Below, piece by piece: positions 10,852-51,145 of a stretch of 64,000 nucleotides of DNA. Under the pieces are notes generated by a model. That model saw nothing but the letters and a program-made list of their open reading frames with translations, was not told the DNA's origin and made no database searches. Each line of letters opens with the position of its first letter. Position 1 is the stretch's first letter. The translations under genes and the position numbers were made by a program. The stretch is from NCBI RefSeq assembly GCF_051903065.1, contig NZ_CP178438.1, one strand, 5' to 3'. This stretch comes from Escherichia coli (lineage in GTDB: Bacteria > Pseudomonadota > Gammaproteobacteria > Enterobacterales > Enterobacteriaceae).

Positions 10852-12327
10852 ATGGCTAACTACTTCAATACACTGAATCTGCGCCAGCAGCTGGCACAGC
10901 TGGGCAAATGTCGCTTTATGGGCCGCGATGAATTCGCCGATGGCGCGAGCTACCTTCAGGGTAAAAAAGTAGTCATTGTCGGCTGTGGTGCACAAGGTCT
11001 GAACCAGGGCCTGAACATGCGTGATTCTGGTCTCGATATCTCCTACGCTCTGCGTAAAGAAGCGATTGCCGAGAAGCGCGCGTCCTGGCGTAAAGCGACC
11101 GAAAATGGTTTTAAAGTGGGTACTTACGAAGAACTGATCCCACAGGCGGATCTGGTGGTTAACCTGACGCCGGACAAGCAGCACTCTGATGTAGTGCGCA
11201 CCGTACAGCCACTGATGAAAGACGGCGCGGCGCTGGGTTACTCGCACGGTTTCAACATCGTCGAAGTGGGCGAGCAGATCCGTAAAGATATCACCGTAGT
11301 CATGGTTGCGCCGAAATGCCCTGGCACCGAAGTGCGTGAAGAGTACAAACGTGGATTCGGCGTACCGACGCTGATTGCCGTTCACCCGGAAAACGATCCG
11401 AAAGGCGAAGGTATGGCGATCGCTAAAGCATGGGCGGCAGCAACCGGTGGTCACCGTGCGGGCGTGCTGGAATCGTCCTTCGTTGCGGAAGTGAAATCTG
11501 ACCTGATGGGCGAGCAAACCATTCTGTGCGGTATGTTGCAGGCTGGCTCGCTGCTGTGCTTCGACAAGCTGGTGGAAGAAGGCACCGACCCGGCATACGC
11601 AGAAAAACTGATTCAGTTCGGCTGGGAAACCATCACCGAAGCGCTGAAACAGGGCGGCATCACCCTGATGATGGACCGTCTCTCTAACCCGGCGAAACTG
11701 CGTGCTTACGCGCTGTCTGAACAGCTGAAAGAGATCATGGCACCGCTGTTCCAGAAACATATGGATGACATCATCTCCGGCGAATTCTCTTCCGGTATGA
11801 TGGCGGACTGGGCCAACGATGATAAGAAACTGCTGACCTGGCGTGAAGAAACCGGCAAAACCGCGTTTGAAACCGCGCCGCAGTATGAAGGCAAAATCGG
11901 CGAGCAGGAGTACTTCGATAAAGGCGTACTGATGATCGCGATGGTGAAAGCGGGCGTTGAACTGGCGTTCGAAACCATGGTCGATTCCGGCATCATTGAA
12001 GAGTCTGCATATTATGAATCACTGCACGAGCTGCCGCTGATTGCCAACACCATCGCCCGTAAGCGTCTGTACGAAATGAACGTGGTTATCTCTGATACCG
12101 CTGAGTACGGTAACTATCTGTTCTCTTACGCTTGTGTGCCGTTGCTGAAACCGTTTATGGCAGAGCTGCAACCGGGCGACCTGGGTAAAGCTATTCCGGA
12201 AGGCGCGGTAGATAACGCGCAACTGCGTGATGTGAACGAAGCGATTCGCAGCCATGCGATTGAGCAGGTAGGTAAGAAACTGCGCGGCTATATGACAGAT
12301 ATGAAACGCATTGCTGTTGCGGGTTAA
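10852..12327 (+). CDS. ilvC: ketol-acid reductoisomerase
   Basis: ORF 10630-12327; start trimmed to [23 protein letters not shown] (491 aa). Confidence 0.93.
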
Positions 12328-35216: not shown

Positions 35217-35293
<77 letters not shown>

Positions 35294-35350
35294 TTTAGTC
35301 CCGGCGCTTGAGCTGCGGTGGTAGTAATACCGCGTAACAAGATTTGTAGT

Positions 35351-35427
35351 GGTGGCTATAGCTCAGTTGGTAGAGCCCTGGATTGTGATTCCAGTTGTCG
35401 TGGGTTCGAATCCCATTAGCCACCCCA
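35351..35427 (+). tRNA. hisR: tRNA-His (GUG)
   Basis: GGTGGCTATAGCTCAGTTGGTAGAGCCCTGGATTGTGATTCCAGTTGTCGTGGGTTCGAATCCCATTAGCCACCCCA including the extra 5' G typical of tRNA-His. Confidence 0.95.
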
Positions 35428-35447
35428 TTATTAGAAGTTGTGACAAT

Positions 35448-35534
35448 GCGAAGGTGGCGGAATTGGTAGACGCGCTAGCTTCAGGTGTTAGTGTCCTTAC
35501 GGACGTGGGGGTTCAAGTCCCCCCCCTCGCACCA
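35448..35534 (+). tRNA. leuT: tRNA-Leu (CAG)
   Basis: 87-nt class II tRNA GCGAAGGTGGCGGAATTGGTAGACGCG...CTTCAGG...CCCCCCCTCGCACCA. Confidence 0.95.
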
Positions 35535-35576
35535 CGACTTTAAAGAATTGAACTAAAAATTCAAAAAGCAGTATTT

Positions 35577-35653
35577 CGGCGAGTAGCGCAGCTTGGTAGC
35601 GCAACTGGTTTGGGACCAGTGGGTCGGAGGTTCGAATCCTCTCTCGCCGACCA
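35577..35653 (+). tRNA. proM: tRNA-Pro (UGG)
   Basis: CGGCGAGTAGCGCAGCTTGGTAGCGCAACTGGTTTGGGACCAGTGGGTCGGAGGTTCGAATCCTCTCTCGCCGACCA. Confidence 0.95.
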
Positions 35654-39536: not shown

Positions 39537-40733
39537 CTACTGTGGTGGGTTGTTCTGCAACGTTAACATCAAACCGTCGCGACGCATCGCTGCAGCTTCT
39601 TCCGGCTTGTGCAGTCTGTCCAGCGCGTCGGCAAGCCATGCGTAATCGTAGGCGTCCGGACGTTGTTTCAGCGCTGCGCGGAAGGCGAGCGATGCTTCCT
39701 GCCATTCTCCGTGCTTCATCAGTGACTGGCCCAGTGTGCTCCACAACAGCGGGCGATCGCCGACGTTTTTGATTTGCTGGCGCAGCACTTTTTCAAGCTG
39801 TTCAGGGTTATTGGTTTTCAGACGCGGGATCGGCAGCAGTAGGCGATCGTCATACTGGCGTTTCAGGCCGTCGATGATAATTTGCTGGGCAGTATCATGA
39901 TCGTCACATTCAATAAGATGTTCCGCCATTGCCACCTGCAACGCTACCTGATGACGCGTTTTCCGGCTTTGGTTTTTCCACCAGTTACGCAAACCTTCGC
40001 TACCGTTATCGGCACGCGCCTGATCCATCAGGCCAATCCATGCCTGTTGTTCCAGCATTGCACGATGTTCTTCATCACCAACATGGGCTTTCGCCATTGA
40101 TGGGATAATATCCAGCAGCGAACTCCATGCACCTGTGCGGATATACGCCTGTTCCGCCAGACGTAATACTTCCGGATGGCGTGGCGTAACTTCCAGCAGC
40201 TTATCCACGCCGTGGCGTGCAGCATGGTTTTCATTACGGGCCAGTTGCAGACGTACACGGGTGATTTCTACCGGAATGGTGTCATTGCCGGCCAGCTCCG
40301 CTGCGCGTTCCAGATGTTGGTTGGCGCGCGCTTCATCACCACGTTGTTGCGCGGCTTCGGCAGCCAGTAGATAGTTCACCACCGGTTGTTCAGCGTGATC
40401 GGCATTTTTCGCCATCAGCTTTTCAACTTGCTGATAATCGCCTTCCGCCAGTTTCAGCAGCGCCTGTTCGGTCTGCTTACGTGCACGGCGACGCTTACGC
40501 CCGACAAACCACCCACGGGTGTGCGCGCCAGTGCGGAAGATCCGCCGCAGTAGCCACTCAATGGCAAACAGCACTACCATCGCCAGAATCAATATGATCG
40601 CCAGGCCCGTGACGCTGGTTTCGATATTGTAGTTGTCGGTCTGGATCAGCACATAACCCTGATGACCGGCAATCATCGGGCCAACCACGATCCCCGCAAT
40701 CAGCAACACAAAGAGCAATAACACTTTTAGCAT
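39537..40733 (-). CDS. hemY: heme biosynthesis-associated TPR membrane protein HemY
   Basis: 398-aa ORF, N-terminal TM helices then TPR-like repeats. Confidence 0.9.
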   Translation of the reverse strand: MLKVLLLFVLLIAGIVVGPMIAGHQGYVLIQTDNYNIETSVTGLAIILILAMVVLFAIEWLLRRIFRTGAHTRGWFVGRKRRRARKQTEQALLKLAEGDYQQVEKLMAKNADHAEQPVVNYLLAAEAAQQRGDEARANQHLERAAELAGNDTIPVEITRVRLQLARNENHAARHGVDKLLEVTPRHPEVLRLAEQAYIRTGAWSSLLDIIPSMAKAHVGDEEHRAMLEQQAWIGLMDQARADNGSEGLRNWWKNQSRKTRHQVALQVAMAEHLIECDDHDTAQQIIIDGLKRQYDDRLLLPIPRLKTNNPEQLEKVLRQQIKNVGDRPLLWSTLGQSLMKHGEWQEASLAFRAALKQRPDAYDYAWLADALDRLHKPEEAAAMRRDGLMLTLQNNPPQ

Positions 40734-40735
40734 GG

Positions 40736-41965
40736 TTATTCTCCTTGCGGCGCGGCTGCCGGAGTATCAGCTTGCGGTGCAGGTGCAGGTGCAGGTGCAG
40801 GTGCAGGTGCAGGTGCAGGTGCAGGTGCAGGTGCAGGTTTAGCTTCCGTTGTCTCCGCTGCCGGTTGTGCCAGCAGGTTACGCACGCGAGTCTGCATCAG
40901 TTTTTCCAGCATCGCCTGGCTTTGCAGGGTTTCCGGAAGATCCATCGAGATATTTTGCTGGCTTAACTGGTCCACCTCGTCGAGGAACGCTTTGGTGGTG
41001 GCATCATCAGTATCGTAGTAAGCACGTACCCAGGTGGAGACGTTCTCCAGCGCCTGGCGATAAGTCTCTTCCTGATGACGCGGTACAGCTTGTGCTGCGA
41101 CCAGCAGGCGAGAGCGAATATTTTCGCGCAGATAGATATCCTGATTTGGCGCTAACAGCGGTACGGCGGTGTCATCACGACGGCGAATCGTAATGAAGTT
41201 GTCCATAAAGTTCTGCCAGCTTTTTTGCAGATTGATACGCCATTCGCTGATGGAACTGGAAAGCTCTTCACCGTCGGAATCCATCGGCGAACCATCGCTG
41301 TCATTATCGGCCAGACGCAGGTTATCTACCTGATTTGAAAGCTGATTAAGCTTAAGGATGATGCCGTCATAATCCACCTGCGATACTGCAGAAAGGCTGG
41401 CGATATCATCGGTAATTGCCCGACGAACGGTAATCAAACTCGGGTCATTCATATCCGCCAGGCTGGCGTCTGCACTTTTCAGCAACGCTGCAGCGGTCGT
41501 GACGTCCTGATCGCTCCACAGCTTCCGTCCGGCGAGTTTCACCAGAAAATCGGCCTGAGCCAGCAGCCAGGTTTTAGCATCGCTGCCGGAAATGGTGGCG
41601 ACCTTTTGTTGGACTTCATCCAACTGTTTTGCCAGCGTTTCTTGCTGACGATTCGCCTGCTTAAGTTGTGCAGCTTGTTGCTTAATAATGCCTTCCAGCT
41701 CGGCTTTTTGGCTCTCCTGGGCTTTTTGCAATGCCGTCAGTTGGTTAGCCAGGGCATCGCTGGTGGCGGTCTGATTGACGGCCTGTTGTTTACCCCAGCC
41801 ATACAAACCGACGCCTGCCGCCAGAGCAATAGCGATAGCCACCGCACTGAGAATCAATGCGGTATTGTTCTTACTCTTTTTTTCTGTTGCGACAGGTTGT
41901 GACGTGGTGTCCACGGCCTCCCTGGTCTCTTCAACCACGGCGGAGGTTTTTTCTTGTTCCGTCAT
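40736..41965 (-). CDS. hemX: HemX (uroporphyrinogen-III C-methyltransferase-like membrane protein)
   Basis: 409-aa ORF with coiled-coil region and a C-terminal Pro-Ala repeat tract. Confidence 0.88.
40777..40836. repeat. perfect hexanucleotide tandem repeat (gtgcag)x10 encoding (PA)n in hemX
   Basis: 10 uninterrupted gtgcag units read directly; the + strand frame gives an (RC)10 artefact ORF. Confidence 0.95.
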
Positions 41966-41986: not shown

Positions 41987-42727
41987 TTATTGTAATGCCC
42001 GTAAAAGCGCATCGTTGTCAGCGTTATCGGCGACCTTAATGTCTTGCCAGCCCAGTTCCCGGGCGAGTTTCGCCAAACGCTCACTGACGACCAATAGTCG
42101 ACAGTGTAGTAACCAGTGCTCACGATACCATTGTGGGATCAGCGACCAGAGTTGCTGCAACATTTCACCGCTGGTAACAACGACCGTCGTCACCTCGCGG
42201 GATTGCCAGCGCATCGCTTCTTCTGCACCATCGTAATGGATTGCGCATCGTTGATAACATTCACAAAAAGTGACCTCAGCACCGCGCGCCGTCAGGGTAT
42301 CCCCAATTAGCTCACGACCGCCATTGCCACGTAATATCAGCGCACGTTTGCCCGCAATATTTTGTAATTCAGGTAATTGTAGCAAGACTTCGCTGATTTC
42401 CCGATCCTGTGGGTAGAGAATCTTCTGTCCGCTTACGGTATGTAGCGCCAGTGCGGTGGTGCGTCCAATGGCGAAATAAGTAGGTAGTCGGGGCCATTTA
42501 CGATCTTGCTGATGCAGCTGTGATTGGGCAAAAGCAACCGCGTGTTGCGAGAGGGCAAACAACAGATCGCTCTCCCCCAGCGCTGCCAGTTGATCAGCAA
42601 GTTGCGGTAATTGTCGACCCGGAGAAAACTCAATCAGCGGAAAATGCCAGGCCACCTGCCCCAGTGTGCGCAGACGGCTCACTAACTCTTCTCCAGCGGG
42701 AGACGGGCGGGTGACAAGGATACTCAT
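41987..42727 (-). CDS. hemD: uroporphyrinogen-III synthase
   Basis: 246-aa [26 protein letters not shown]. Confidence 0.92.
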
Positions 42728-47040: not shown

Positions 47041-47466
47041 TTAACCTACATACCTCGTCCCATTCCAACGCAAGATTGTATCCTCGTCGCATAAAAGGTT
47101 GTGTACGCCATGATTCTTTTCTTTCATCAGGCTGATTTTGCTACAAAAATAATCAATGTTAATTTTGGAGTTATCCGGGGTCATAATACTGCAAGCCATA
47201 GTTGGTGCGTCACTCGCGGTATATCCACAATCGTCTTTCCCGCAGGCAGCGGGAGGCGTGGAGGGTGAATACGTGCAGTTAAGCGTTTCGGAAATGCCAT
47301 CATCGTTAATGTCGAGGGGACGGCTAATCTCATCGCTGTCAGTGCCTAATGTGGTTGCATCCAGGATGACGTTTGGTTTTTGTATCTCGCTTGTGGCCGC
47401 GTAATTGAAGCTGCTTGCGGCCATTATGCCTAGAGCTATGCCAATCCGTAAGGCTATTTTTTGCAT
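47041..47466 (-). CDS. small secreted Cys-rich protein of unknown function
   Basis: 141-aa ORF with N-terminal signal peptide (MQKIALRIGIALGIMAASSFNYA) and 6 Cys; its start overlaps the stop of the upstream gene by 13 nt; AT-rich. Confidence 0.6.
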   Translation of the reverse strand: MQKIALRIGIALGIMAASSFNYAATSEIQKPNVILDATTLGTDSDEISRPLDINDDGISETLNCTYSPSTPPAACGKDDCGYTASDAPTMACSIMTPDNSKINIDYFCSKISLMKEKNHGVHNLLCDEDTILRWNGTRYVG

Positions 47467-48749
47467 CCTGGTTCCTCTGTAATAATCATAATGTCTCTGT
47501 TTTGAACTTCACGCACATTCTCTTCTCTGACACGAGTTTTCGCCGGACAGGGGGATGGCGTAATCCTGACCTCTGTATCGGTCCAGGTATAAACATTGCG
47601 ATCGTCATAAGCGAAGCGATCGTTTTTAATTAGCGGGCCGTTAGTTGGAATAATTTGCACGCTCTTTGACCGTAATTGGCGGATAAAGTAAACATGTTGT
47701 TTGCCGCCATTAAATGAGTTATCAATGACCAGGTCTGGCGAATCCAGCGGAATTATTTCAAGCTGGTCTTCACCAAAAGTCGATAATTTTGTTACATACA
47801 GACGATCTTTATACTGCGCAATATTGCCAGTAATCAGATGAAATTGTTCAGGTTCAATATCCGGTAGGTCTATCCACTTGCTCCACTGACGGTCGGGCGA
47901 GAGCTGTTTACGCCAGCGAACGCGACTTTCCCCCACTTCAAAAGAGACGTCATCATCTACGGGTATCGCTTTGCCAGATAATTGCCCAAAGGGATAACGA
48001 TGCAGACCATTGTTGTCGCGAAAAACCAGCAGTGAATGAGGTATCCAGCGAATTATCTCAAATGAGTCTGCATTCGCCGTAAGGTGAACGCCATTTAAAT
48101 AAATATTCTGCCCACTGCGGATAAGCAGATCATTGGAATACAAATTTCTGTTTACACTCATAAGACGTGGATTAATACCCCACCATCTTTTTTCTAATAC
48201 AGTAACATTACTGCTGCTCCCCTGACGTCGACCGGACAAATAGAGATTTTTACTATCCACCAGCGTGGTAGAGTTACCTTCGATAGCTTTTAGTGTCGCC
48301 AGATCAACACGTGACGCGCCGCTATTACTTTCGGTGCGCTGTCCATCAAAATAGAGGCTATATTTATCGACCGCGAAGCGGCCCATAGCCTGAAAGCTGG
48401 CAATATCGACAGTGGGTATTCCCGGTGGATTGCTAACGATTTTGCCACGCCAGAGAATAACGCGGCCGTCTGTCACCCAGTGGTATTCCTCATTTTTTAT
48501 GCTTATTTCATCGGTGGGTATATAGCCTTCCACTAACTCCCGCTCCCCGGATATATTTGTCACAAGGCGCAAATCGGCTCTGTTCATCTTCGGAAATTGG
48601 GCAATGATTTTCTCATCCTCCCCATAACCTTTACCGTAAGACATGACACCGTGATCATTGTAATAGTCGAACCCTATGGCCTGTACAGCAGGTGTCAGAA
48701 ATGTGTGCCCCAACAGGATGAGTGCAACTGTGATTATTTGACCATTCAT
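47454..48749 (-). CDS. secreted DKNYY-like repeat protein, paralog B
   Basis: 431-aa ORF, signal peptide (MNGQIITVALILLGHTFLTPAVQA); recurring motifs (DKYSLYFDG, NIYLNGVHLTANADSFEI, DDRNVYTW); clearly homologous to the ORF at 48746-50224. Confidence 0.7.
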   Translation of the reverse strand: MNGQIITVALILLGHTFLTPAVQAIGFDYYNDHGVMSYGKGYGEDEKIIAQFPKMNRADLRLVTNISGERELVEGYIPTDEISIKNEEYHWVTDGRVILWRGKIVSNPPGIPTVDIASFQAMGRFAVDKYSLYFDGQRTESNSGASRVDLATLKAIEGNSTTLVDSKNLYLSGRRQGSSSNVTVLEKRWWGINPRLMSVNRNLYSNDLLIRSGQNIYLNGVHLTANADSFEIIRWIPHSLLVFRDNNGLHRYPFGQLSGKAIPVDDDVSFEVGESRVRWRKQLSPDRQWSKWIDLPDIEPEQFHLITGNIAQYKDRLYVTKLSTFGEDQLEIIPLDSPDLVIDNSFNGGKQHVYFIRQLRSKSVQIIPTNGPLIKNDRFAYDDRNVYTWTDTEVRITPSPCPAKTRVREENVREVQNRDIMIITEEPGCKK

Positions 48750-50224
48750 TTTGTCGCCTCATTGCGCGGGGCAGGAATAAATTCGCCGTCATCGGTAATT
48801 TTTCCGTCCAGATATCCCGTTTTGTAATTTACCCCGTAGCCATATCCCGAATGTTGTTCCTTCCAGATTAAGCGAACTTGTTTCGGATCAGCGGTGCGGT
48901 ATCGCCAGAGCTGCGCGCCATCAAAGCTGTAAACGTAGCGGTTATCGCGGGCATACCATCTGCGCAAAAAGGGATGGTCATTAAGATGGGCTTCGCGTTC
49001 ATCCGGAGAACGGTTATCCAGTAAGATCAGCGGTCCGTCAGATTCAAACACGTGTAAACCGGAATGGTATGGCCACCCTTCGGCACGCGTAAGTAAATAG
49101 CCGTGGCGTTTCCCGGCGTTGAAACGTTTGTTGATAATAAGATTGGGATCATCAAGTTTCACGATCTCCAGCTTGCGGTCACCAGACTCTGTTTCGATGA
49201 TGGTATAAAGCGAGTCCTGATACTGTGCGACAGCATCACTGATGGGGTGAAACTGTTCCGGATCGAGTCCGGGTAATTCTTCCTGTTTACAGTCAGGCCC
49301 CTGACGCCAGAACACTTTCTTTTCCAGCAGAGAAAAATCCAGACAGTGCTTTGTTAAATCTTCATCCCACGCCAGATTTTCCTTGTCGAGGACTTTACGC
49401 TGCAGCCCGTTTTTATCACGCCAGGTCAAGAGTGAGCCGGGCATCCAGCGCACGACGGAAAAAGTGTCCGGGTCGGCATCAAGCTGTTCGCCGTTGATCA
49501 GGATTTTGGTTCTTGTACGAGCCAGGGTATCCCAGGGGCCAAATGGCATAGCCACACAGGGATTAAACGCGGTAGAAAACTTTCCTCTTTGATCCCATGA
49601 CTTTTGTGCCAGCACACGGAAACTCTCGGGGTCAGCGAGGCGATGCCCATCGACATATAAGAAATTAGCGTCACGTAATATCAGCCCCAGTAAGTCAGGA
49701 TCCCAGGGAGGCCGGAATTCCACCTGATGCAGTGTTTTGATATCTACGCTATTTCCCCCGCCATTGTCATCGGTGCGCTTGCCTTCGAAATAGAGACTGT
49801 GTTTATCTGCGGCAAAATCACCCCATGCCTTGAACGAGGCGACATCGACGGGAGGTTTGTCTGGCGGGTTTTGCACAACTTCACCCGCGTAGAGGATATT
49901 GCGGCCATCGCTATGCCAGGAGTAATGAGGATACCAGGCTTGTGCGCCTTCATAGAGGTAGTCGGTTGTTAGATCAGTCAGAGGTGGTTCTTTATTCCAT
50001 TCATCTTGTGTTGTTGGGTCTATTAATAAATTGGGTAAACGGCGCAAACTCTTGTAATTCACGTCAGGTAGAGAAAGATTTGTTTCTTTATAAGGGCGCA
50101 GGTACACCACGCCTTTTCCCTGTTTCTGGTAAATATTATGTTCAGGTGCATCAAGCCGACATCCCCATGCCGACGATAAGAACAATGAACAAGCCAACAA
50201 ACAAACCACATTGCGATAGTGCAT
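48746..50224 (-). CDS. secreted DKNYY-like repeat protein, paralog A
   Basis: ORF 48746-50254 (GTG) trimmed to ATG at 50224 (MHYRNVVCLLACSLFLSSAWG signal peptide); motifs DKHSLYFEG, FLYVDGHRLADPESF, ILINGEQLDADPDTF, RDNRYVYSFDG; 4-nt ATGA overlap with paralog B. Confidence 0.7.
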   Translation of the reverse strand: MHYRNVVCLLACSLFLSSAWGCRLDAPEHNIYQKQGKGVVYLRPYKETNLSLPDVNYKSLRRLPNLLIDPTTQDEWNKEPPLTDLTTDYLYEGAQAWYPHYSWHSDGRNILYAGEVVQNPPDKPPVDVASFKAWGDFAADKHSLYFEGKRTDDNGGGNSVDIKTLHQVEFRPPWDPDLLGLILRDANFLYVDGHRLADPESFRVLAQKSWDQRGKFSTAFNPCVAMPFGPWDTLARTRTKILINGEQLDADPDTFSVVRWMPGSLLTWRDKNGLQRKVLDKENLAWDEDLTKHCLDFSLLEKKVFWRQGPDCKQEELPGLDPEQFHPISDAVAQYQDSLYTIIETESGDRKLEIVKLDDPNLIINKRFNAGKRHGYLLTRAEGWPYHSGLHVFESDGPLILLDNRSPDEREAHLNDHPFLRRWYARDNRYVYSFDGAQLWRYRTADPKQVRLIWKEQHSGYGYGVNYKTGYLDGKITDDGEFIPAPRNEATK

Positions 50225-50333
50225 AAAGCCATCCTGGCGCGAGGTGTTGATCACGATACTGCCAGCAGAACATAAATCCTCACACGTAAGCGTAATTCTC
50301 GCGGCAAATCGTCACTTTTCAGAATCCATAAAG
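50163..50333. repeat. direct repeat copy 1 (~171 bp): 5' end and upstream region of paralog A
   Basis: near-identical to 51245-51415 by eye (ccccatgccgacgataa...cacttttcaga..cataaag). Confidence 0.85.
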
Positions 50334-50590
50334 GTCATTGCTATTTTCTGATAGTTGCTGGGGTAAACGTGATGTTTTCATTCACGATATAAATACGAGG
50401 TACTGCGCCATGGTGTGACTGATCACGTTAAAATGTGCCGGGTTGACGCCGGGAAGGGGTTCAACATGCGACTCTGCCCCCGTTGCCTACTTTATTGTCT
50501 TTCGCGAGTTGTACCCATGTTCCACCACTGGTATCTAACATTCTCCACATTATTACGCTTTCTGCCGAATGTGATTTTTATAGAAATCTA

Positions 50591-51145
50591 TCAATTCATT
50601 TTCCCTGTGCCATAAATTTTATCCTTCACATCCTGCCGAACGCGGGTCTTGTACCCCCCGTTGTGAAGATCTTCATACGGAGAAAAAGAATCTTTACTCC
50701 ACCCCAGCAGCACTTTATCGCCAGGCATAAAATGCACATGCAGAAAATCTTCTCCCCATTCTCTTTTGGGGAGAGGTAACGTCATATTCCGTTTCTCCAG
50801 ACGCATTCCAGCATTATACTGTGTACGAGTAGTACTTAATGTCCAGATAACCTCTGCAGTATCCCCACTGACATCACCACAACAGGTTGTTGAACCTCCA
50901 CCATTTGCAAAAGCATTCGCGCCCGCCACGCCGTTAACACTGAATCCCAGTATCGGACGGTCAATTTCACTGTGGATTTCCAGAATCACTCCACCTCTTG
51001 GACCTCCCCATACTGCCTGCCCTATATTCCACAACACGACCAGTACTGGAACGACAATTAACGTCCGCCATACCCAGCGCCCCCAGCGGGCATAACCGCG
51101 CGTAAGCTTTTGGTCAAATTTTTCCAGTTGGGTAAATAGCCCCAT
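50591..51145 (-). CDS. membrane-anchored protein of unknown function
   Basis: 184-aa ORF, one N-terminal TM helix (WRTLIVVPVLVVLWNIGQAVW) then a Gly-rich soluble domain with a CC pair (GGGSTTCCGDVSGD); lies downstream of repeat copy 2. Confidence 0.6.
   Translation of the reverse strand: MGLFTQLEKFDQKLTRGYARWGRWVWRTLIVVPVLVVLWNIGQAVWGGPRGGVILEIHSEIDRPILGFSVNGVAGANAFANGGGSTTCCGDVSGDTAEVIWTLSTTRTQYNAGMRLEKRNMTLPLPKREWGEDFLHVHFMPGDKVLLGWSKDSFSPYEDLHNGGYKTRVRQDVKDKIYGTGKMN

Follow-up and report, generated by a model that had tools for sequence, protein, structure and literature searches.

Two typing loci of Escherichia coli are the closest described counterparts of the hexanucleotide array that lies in hemX within the 64-kb stretch of DNA analysed here (the window). 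CVN014 reportedly belongs to the generic E. coli MLVA (GECM-7/GECM-10) of Lindstedt et al. 2007 and Lobersli et al. 2012, and EHC-1 is said to come from the Japanese MLVA for EHEC O157, O26 and O111 of Izumiya et al. 2010. The primers of CVN014 and its size formula (product = 111 + 6n) are given in PMC8143711 (Table 1 for the primers), and those of EHC-1 in PMC10062581 (S5 Table). CVN014 has been described as the most variable locus of its assay (PMC3877011) and as the one that varies most in ESBL isolates from Sweden (PMC5217547). It shows 9 alleles of 4–15 repeats (Nei diversity 0.83) in non-O157 STEC (PMC3519732) and 2–11 repeats within ST131 (PMC3407997), and the medians of EHC-1 lie between 5 and 12 depending on the O157 clade (PMC10062581).

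Other hexanucleotide VNTRs used in enterobacterial typing (O157-3, -9, -17, -19, -25 and -37, and Salmonella STTR5 in yohM) also have 6-bp units situated in or beside genes. They share in-frame slippage, high diversity and outbreak use with the hemX array, but the loci are different. Identity of the array with one of the PulseNet O157 loci (O157-3, -9, -17, -19, -25, -34, -36 and -37) was considered and rejected, as none of their primers, which agree with S5 Table of PMC10062581, maps near hemX; the single fuzzy match of these primers in the window, with 4 edits at position 12033, is taken as chance.

Two further classes of repeat invite comparison. The contingency loci of Haemophilus, Neisseria and Campylobacter resemble the hemX array in their slippage-prone perfect repeats and high mutation rates. 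However, contingency repeats switch genes by frameshift or by promoter spacing, whereas the hemX unit consists of two codons and no allele shifts the frame. The array does not behave as a phase-variable contingency locus, the downstream sequence up to the hemY start being the same in all 16 alleles fetched. The (EP)n/(KP)n segments of TonB and the AP-rich hinge of OmpA, for their part, show an alternating Pro-X composition like that of the HemX tract, which is likely periplasmic. These segments join two functional domains and are of fixed length within a species, whereas the HemX tract varies from 0 to 19 units and has no domain after it.

The hemX array and its identity with CVN014 and EHC-1

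Direct reading of the sequence gives ten exact GTGCAG units at positions 40777–40836, embedded in a maximal perfect period-6 run of 63 nt (40776–40838; GGTGCA × 10.5 on the plus strand). TRF reports the array with period 6, 10.5 copies, 100% matches and a score of 126, the highest of four hits across the 64-kb window (the remaining three score ≤60), and no other perfect repeat with a period of 4–12 and at least 4 copies occurs in the window. The array belongs to hemX, which is encoded on the minus strand (40736–41965; 409 aa). On the coding strand the unit reads CCT GCA, with identical codons in all units, and specifies (Pro-Ala)10 at residues 377–396, followed by 13 residues and the hemX stop codon. 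The sequence thus agrees with the initial annotation, which had placed ten uninterrupted gtgcag units at 40777–40836 and read them as a (Pro-Ala)n tract of hemX. Sequence, TRF output, codon reading and copy number in other genomes all mark the minus-strand run at 40776–40838 as the variable core of the typing loci discussed below.

The array also yields, as had been pointed out at the outset, a plus-strand ORF containing (Arg-Cys)10. This ORF (40745–40966; 73 aa, TTG start) is antisense to hemX, and nothing is annotated at its position in the RefSeq loci fetched. Since it lies opposite a conserved annotated gene and is unannotated in those loci, we regard it as a by-product of the repeat and not as a gene.

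Both published primer pairs find their sites around the array. The CVN014 forward primer matches positions 40691–40714 on the plus strand without mismatch and the reverse primer matches 40842–40861 on the minus strand with one mismatch, both sites being unique in the window. The resulting amplicon (40691–40861) measures 171 bp, and the size formula returns (171 − 111)/6 = 10 repeats, which equals the direct unit count. For EHC-1, the reverse primer (40751–40768, plus strand) and the forward primer (40866–40885, minus strand) each match a unique site without mismatch and delimit an amplicon of 135 bp (40751–40885). Because both pairs flank the array, the hemX array is CVN014 and is EHC-1, an identity that we hold to be practically certain. 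The hemX VNTR is therewith an already known, established and routinely used MLVA marker, whose hypervariability is documented.

Comparison with the published data reveals no difference of substance between CVN014 and the array: locus and 6-bp unit are the same, the window allele has 10 repeats by formula, and the published range of 1–15 repeats matches the 0–19 found here; what is added is the setting in gene and protein, namely the Pro-Ala tail of HemX. The O157 clade medians published for EHC-1 are likewise in line with the 3–12 units of the O157:H7 genomes studied here, although the counting may be off by one unit, as TRF gives 11.5 copies for TW14359 against a clade 8 median of 12. A full-text search of open-access papers returned none that names hemX as host of CVN014, EHC-1 or any VNTR, and the only match for hemX together with VNTR or tandem repeat concerned a SNP in hemX of Salmonella, which is unrelated. 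The primer sequences supply the link made here between gene and typing loci.

A SNP at position 40855, inside the CVN014 reverse-primer site, distinguishes two flanking haplotypes. The window carries GTCTCC (Glu371), and most strains carry GTCCCC (Gly). The window haplotype accounts for the single CVN014 primer mismatch, the degenerate published primer not covering this position.

Copy number across E. coli genomes

Of 5,426 complete E. coli genomes, 5,425 matched a 601-nt query taken from the array and its surroundings. From the ranked matches, 60 genomes were picked at regular intervals for each of two systematic samples, which have two strains in common. In 118 of these 120 rows the aligned span equals the query plus or minus an exact multiple of 6, corresponding to 1–19 units, and the remaining two rows are the same strain, NCTC11023, sampled twice. 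Altogether, the sampled genomes range from 0 to 19 units around a median of 6; they comprise about 17 alleles, and Nei diversity is about 0.91, in a collection that is biased by many K-12 derivatives swelling the 2-unit class. Most of these counts (104 of 120) are inferred from alignment spans and not read from sequence; re-reading on fetched sequence confirmed all 13 span-inferred counts to which it was applied. The initial annotation had expected the repeat number to differ between strains and had named an identical number in all strains as the contrary outcome; the latter is clearly not observed, and the expected variation is extensive.

In the 16 loci that were fetched, length differences are confined to the array, which is uninterrupted wherever present, and every allele keeps the hemX frame. 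Read from these sequences, the array has 1 unit in DETEC-P351, 2 units in the K-12 strain MG1655, 3 and 4 units in two O157:H7 genomes, 5 units in 40EC, 8 units in EA2 and ECNB21-M121, and 10 units in O157:H16 Santai. Longer alleles were read in 23CRST027, 23CRST031 and O157:H7 TW14359 (11 units each), O157:H7 Z1813 (12 units), GF43 (13 units), TK3046 (17 units) and STEC1590 (19 units; HemX of 427 aa). The MG1655 protein has 393 aa, so that the contrast drawn earlier between 409 aa here and some 393 aa in K-12 holds, the difference coming from the array.

One fetched locus has no array. NCTC11023 (NZ_LS483297.1; 0 units, HemX of 384 aa) carries a natural in-frame deletion of the whole array together with 15 adjacent bases (5 residues), orthologous to window positions 40763–40838, with the junction falling between ...gctgccgg and tttagc.... 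With the CVN014 primers this strain would give a negative repeat number, and its deletion takes part of the EHC-1 reverse-primer site.

The array changes between genomes that are otherwise almost the same. Of the genomes in the collection, 23CRST027 and 23CRST031 are the closest to the window; across 22 kb, a single SNP and one additional repeat unit are all that separate 23CRST027 from the window. A strain of 99.9% identity has 8 units, and 3, 4, 11 and 12 units are all found within O157:H7 genomes. Moreover, 8 units occur on both the GTCTCC and the GTCCCC flanking haplotypes, which, judged from these flanks, shows size homoplasy. On either DNA strand, the TGCA palindromes allow the array to fold into imperfect hairpins (−13.9 and −11.3 kcal/mol; z values of −2.7 and −5.0). 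Taken together, the differences between near-identical genomes, the homoplasy, the identical codons and the hairpins indicate that recurrent replication slippage most likely drives the change in length. The initial view of the array as a slippage-prone in-frame VNTR gains support from the unit-multiple lengths and from the frame kept in all fetched alleles.

Two other features of the window were recorded. Between cyaY and lptM/dapF lies an accessory segment some 4 kb long (47041–51145, minus strand), which contains four ORFs, of 141 aa (no Pfam match), 431 aa and 502 aa (both with weak matches to the DKNYY family) and 184 aa (DUF3304), three of which are labelled 'hypothetical' by RefSeq in the nearest relative; a 22-kb query containing this segment is covered to at least 80% in only 3,912 of 5,425 genomes. 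Four tRNA genes (Arg-CCG, His-GTG, Leu-CAG and Pro-TGG) form a cluster at 35217–35653 on the plus strand, with thrP and aslB on either side; the annotated relative has the same arrangement.

The HemX tail and the hemY junction

Residues 130–363 of the HemX protein match Pfam PF04375 (E-value of 4e-108; 360.9 bits, cut-off 25.9), and NCBIfam PRK10920 (NF008173) matches over the full length (720 bits, cut-off 313). By these profile matches, and in agreement with the RefSeq annotation of orthologous loci, the ORF at 40736–41965 is a member of the HemX family (PF04375/PRK10920). In annotations the product bears the label 'uroporphyrinogen-III C-methyltransferase'; the function of HemX is unsettled. 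A hemX deletion is viable (PMC12282077), and an interaction of HemX with YhcB/ZapG has been observed in two-hybrid assays (PMC8163987). A single transmembrane helix is predicted at about residues 35–57, just preceded by KKSK. The position of this helix near the N terminus and the residues before it imply an N-in, C-out membrane anchor with a predicted periplasmic body.

The repeat is carried by a P/A-rich C-terminal tail (residues 366–409). An AF2 model built with 25 close homologues aligned is poor (mean pLDDT of 44); at this low confidence, it places the last helix at residues 343–365 and leaves residues 366–409 as coil, with a pLDDT of about 30 in the tail, which is apparently unstructured according to the model. 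No solved relative turned up in a sequence search of the PDB. The initial annotation had called the tract a linker near the HemX C terminus. Its C-terminal location stands, but the word 'linker' fits only loosely: residue 363 is the last of the Pfam domain, and beyond the tract come only 13 residues and no domain, for which reason we call it a tail. For the same reason it does not form a rigid interdomain linker of the TonB/OmpA type, which joins two domains.

In Citrobacter and Salmonella, the HemX tail is rich in Pro, Ala and Thr, yet short or non-repetitive. The P/A-rich composition is kept across Enterobacteriaceae and could mean that the tail has some function. Within the tail, only the last residues (P406, Q407, G408 and E409) are invariant in the alignment of 25 HemX sequences.

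Tails of related proteins show repeats of their own. Three HemX sequences of Citrobacter sedlakii (P0011, P0017 and P0007; 394, 397 and 400 aa) carry (Ala-Ala-Pro)n, in which 1, 2 or 3 copies are additional; at the protein level, this suggests that a second genus has an independent VNTR, with a 9-bp unit, at the corresponding place. The tails of C. gillenii and C. freundii contain (Ala-Pro)4–5. Among metagenome-derived homologues, P0001 has an array broken by one Thr (PAPAPAPTPAPAPAP), the sole impure allele seen; its 485 aa were considered as a sign of a very long array, a reading that was rejected because the extra length lies outside the tail and the tail array is short. Another such homologue, P0093 (435 aa), has a frameshifted tail that runs into hemY, most likely as a result of a sequencing error within the repeat.

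The gene hemX sits between hemD (41987–42727, same strand) and hemY (39537–40733, minus strand), the latter supported by the ORF list, RefSeq annotation and sequence. The hemY ATG follows the hemX stop codon after 2 nt, and a Shine-Dalgarno sequence for hemY, AAGGAG (40741–40746, minus strand), is contained in the last hemX codons CAA GGA GAA TAA. Given the location of this Shine-Dalgarno sequence inside hemX and the short distance from stop to start, translational coupling of hemX and hemY is likely. The codons of the PQGE end contain the hemY Shine-Dalgarno sequence, and this constraint at the DNA level probably accounts for the conservation of PQGE in HemX.

Between the end of the array and the hemY Shine-Dalgarno sequence downstream lie 38 nt, and both this distance and the intervening sequence are the same in all alleles fetched. 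In RNA partition-function folds with 0–25 units, the unpaired probability of the hemY Shine-Dalgarno and start region is constant, and the Shine-Dalgarno sequence never pairs with the array. Within the junction at 40731–40749, these folds predict the Shine-Dalgarno sequence to be fully base-paired at every repeat number.

Origin and significance of the length variation

The whole account that we favour, at a probability of roughly 0.87, is that the array is a hexanucleotide microsatellite in the 3′ coding part of hemX, identical with CVN014/EHC-1, that changes by slippage, alters the length of the tail in frame and is neutral or nearly so. CCTGCA units would misalign at replication by slipped-strand mispairing, possibly assisted by the imperfect hairpins that form through the TGCA palindromes, and units would be gained or lost as whole 6-bp steps. 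As the unit equals two codons, each change would remain in frame and alter only the length of (Pro-Ala)n in the HemX tail, and neither the conserved domain of HemX nor the ribosome-binding site of hemY would be affected. Neutrality or near-neutrality of the length variation, taken on its own, appears probable from the comparison of alleles and homologues. The tract lies beyond the Pfam HemX match, an array-less in-frame allele exists in nature, and the tails of Citrobacter and Salmonella do without a long repeat, all of which point to tolerance.

The tract might instead be an adaptive spacer, that is, a stiff, extended periplasmic rod (compare TonB and the OmpA hinge) whose length tunes the reach of the conserved C-terminal residues and is under diversifying or lineage-specific selection. 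Such a role would fit the presence of P/A-rich tails in all close HemX homologues with conservation of their last residues, the very high allele diversity and the existence of envelope partners of HemX such as YhcB/ZapG (PMC8163987). However, the tract precedes only 13 residues and no domain, NCTC11023 lives without the tract and 5 adjacent residues, and 2 units suffice in K-12. The conservation of PQGE probably finds its explanation in the embedded hemY Shine-Dalgarno sequence, the identical codons of the units speak for recent slippage rather than for selection on the peptide, and copy number differs between near-identical genomes. We therefore consider selection on spacer length unlikely. 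An effect on the mRNA, by which array length would alter its structure or the transit of ribosomes upstream of the hemY start and thereby modulate hemX–hemY coupling, draws on the closeness of the array to a Shine-Dalgarno sequence lying within hemX, on the 2-nt intergenic gap and on the use in every unit of CCT, a rare Pro codon. Yet the predicted accessibility of the hemY Shine-Dalgarno and start region does not respond to repeat number, pairing between Shine-Dalgarno sequence and array is absent from the folds, what separates the two is constant in the fetched alleles, and Pro-Ala is not known as a strong stalling motif; a regulatory repeat is thus very unlikely.

There is next to no chance that the repeat lengths are errors of assembly or sequencing, or that the plus-strand (Arg-Cys)10 ORF is a real gene. 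Some sequencing platforms do miscount short tandem repeats, and the frameshifted tail of the metagenomic homologue P0093 is most likely such a case, but 5,425 finished genomes carry the locus in lengths that step by whole units, and many laboratories have sized it by PCR since 2007. As to the ORF, the opposing minus-strand frame belongs to a conserved Pfam family, and the ORF itself is antisense, begins with TTG and is unannotated in the loci fetched.

As a discovery, the hemX microsatellite amounts to little, since CVN014 has been in use since 2007 and EHC-1 since 2010 for the subtyping of E. coli and EHEC in outbreaks. For in-silico MLVA, the array of the window counts as an allele of 10 repeats, and the typing names are now tied to a gene context, namely the 3′ end of hemX, its Pro-Ala tail and a position 38 nt upstream of the hemY Shine-Dalgarno sequence. 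Annotated HemX lengths from 384 to 427 aa are best taken for VNTR alleles and not for errors. Should the length of the tail have a phenotype, this would be a modest curiosity concerning a protein of unsettled function. There is a slim chance that the typing marker is at the same time a functional polymorphism, with the repeat length of tail or mRNA altering HemX/HemY activity, envelope interactions (YhcB/ZapG, LapA) or aminoglycoside susceptibility; if so, slippage at the hemX array would generate heritable phenotypic diversity within clones.
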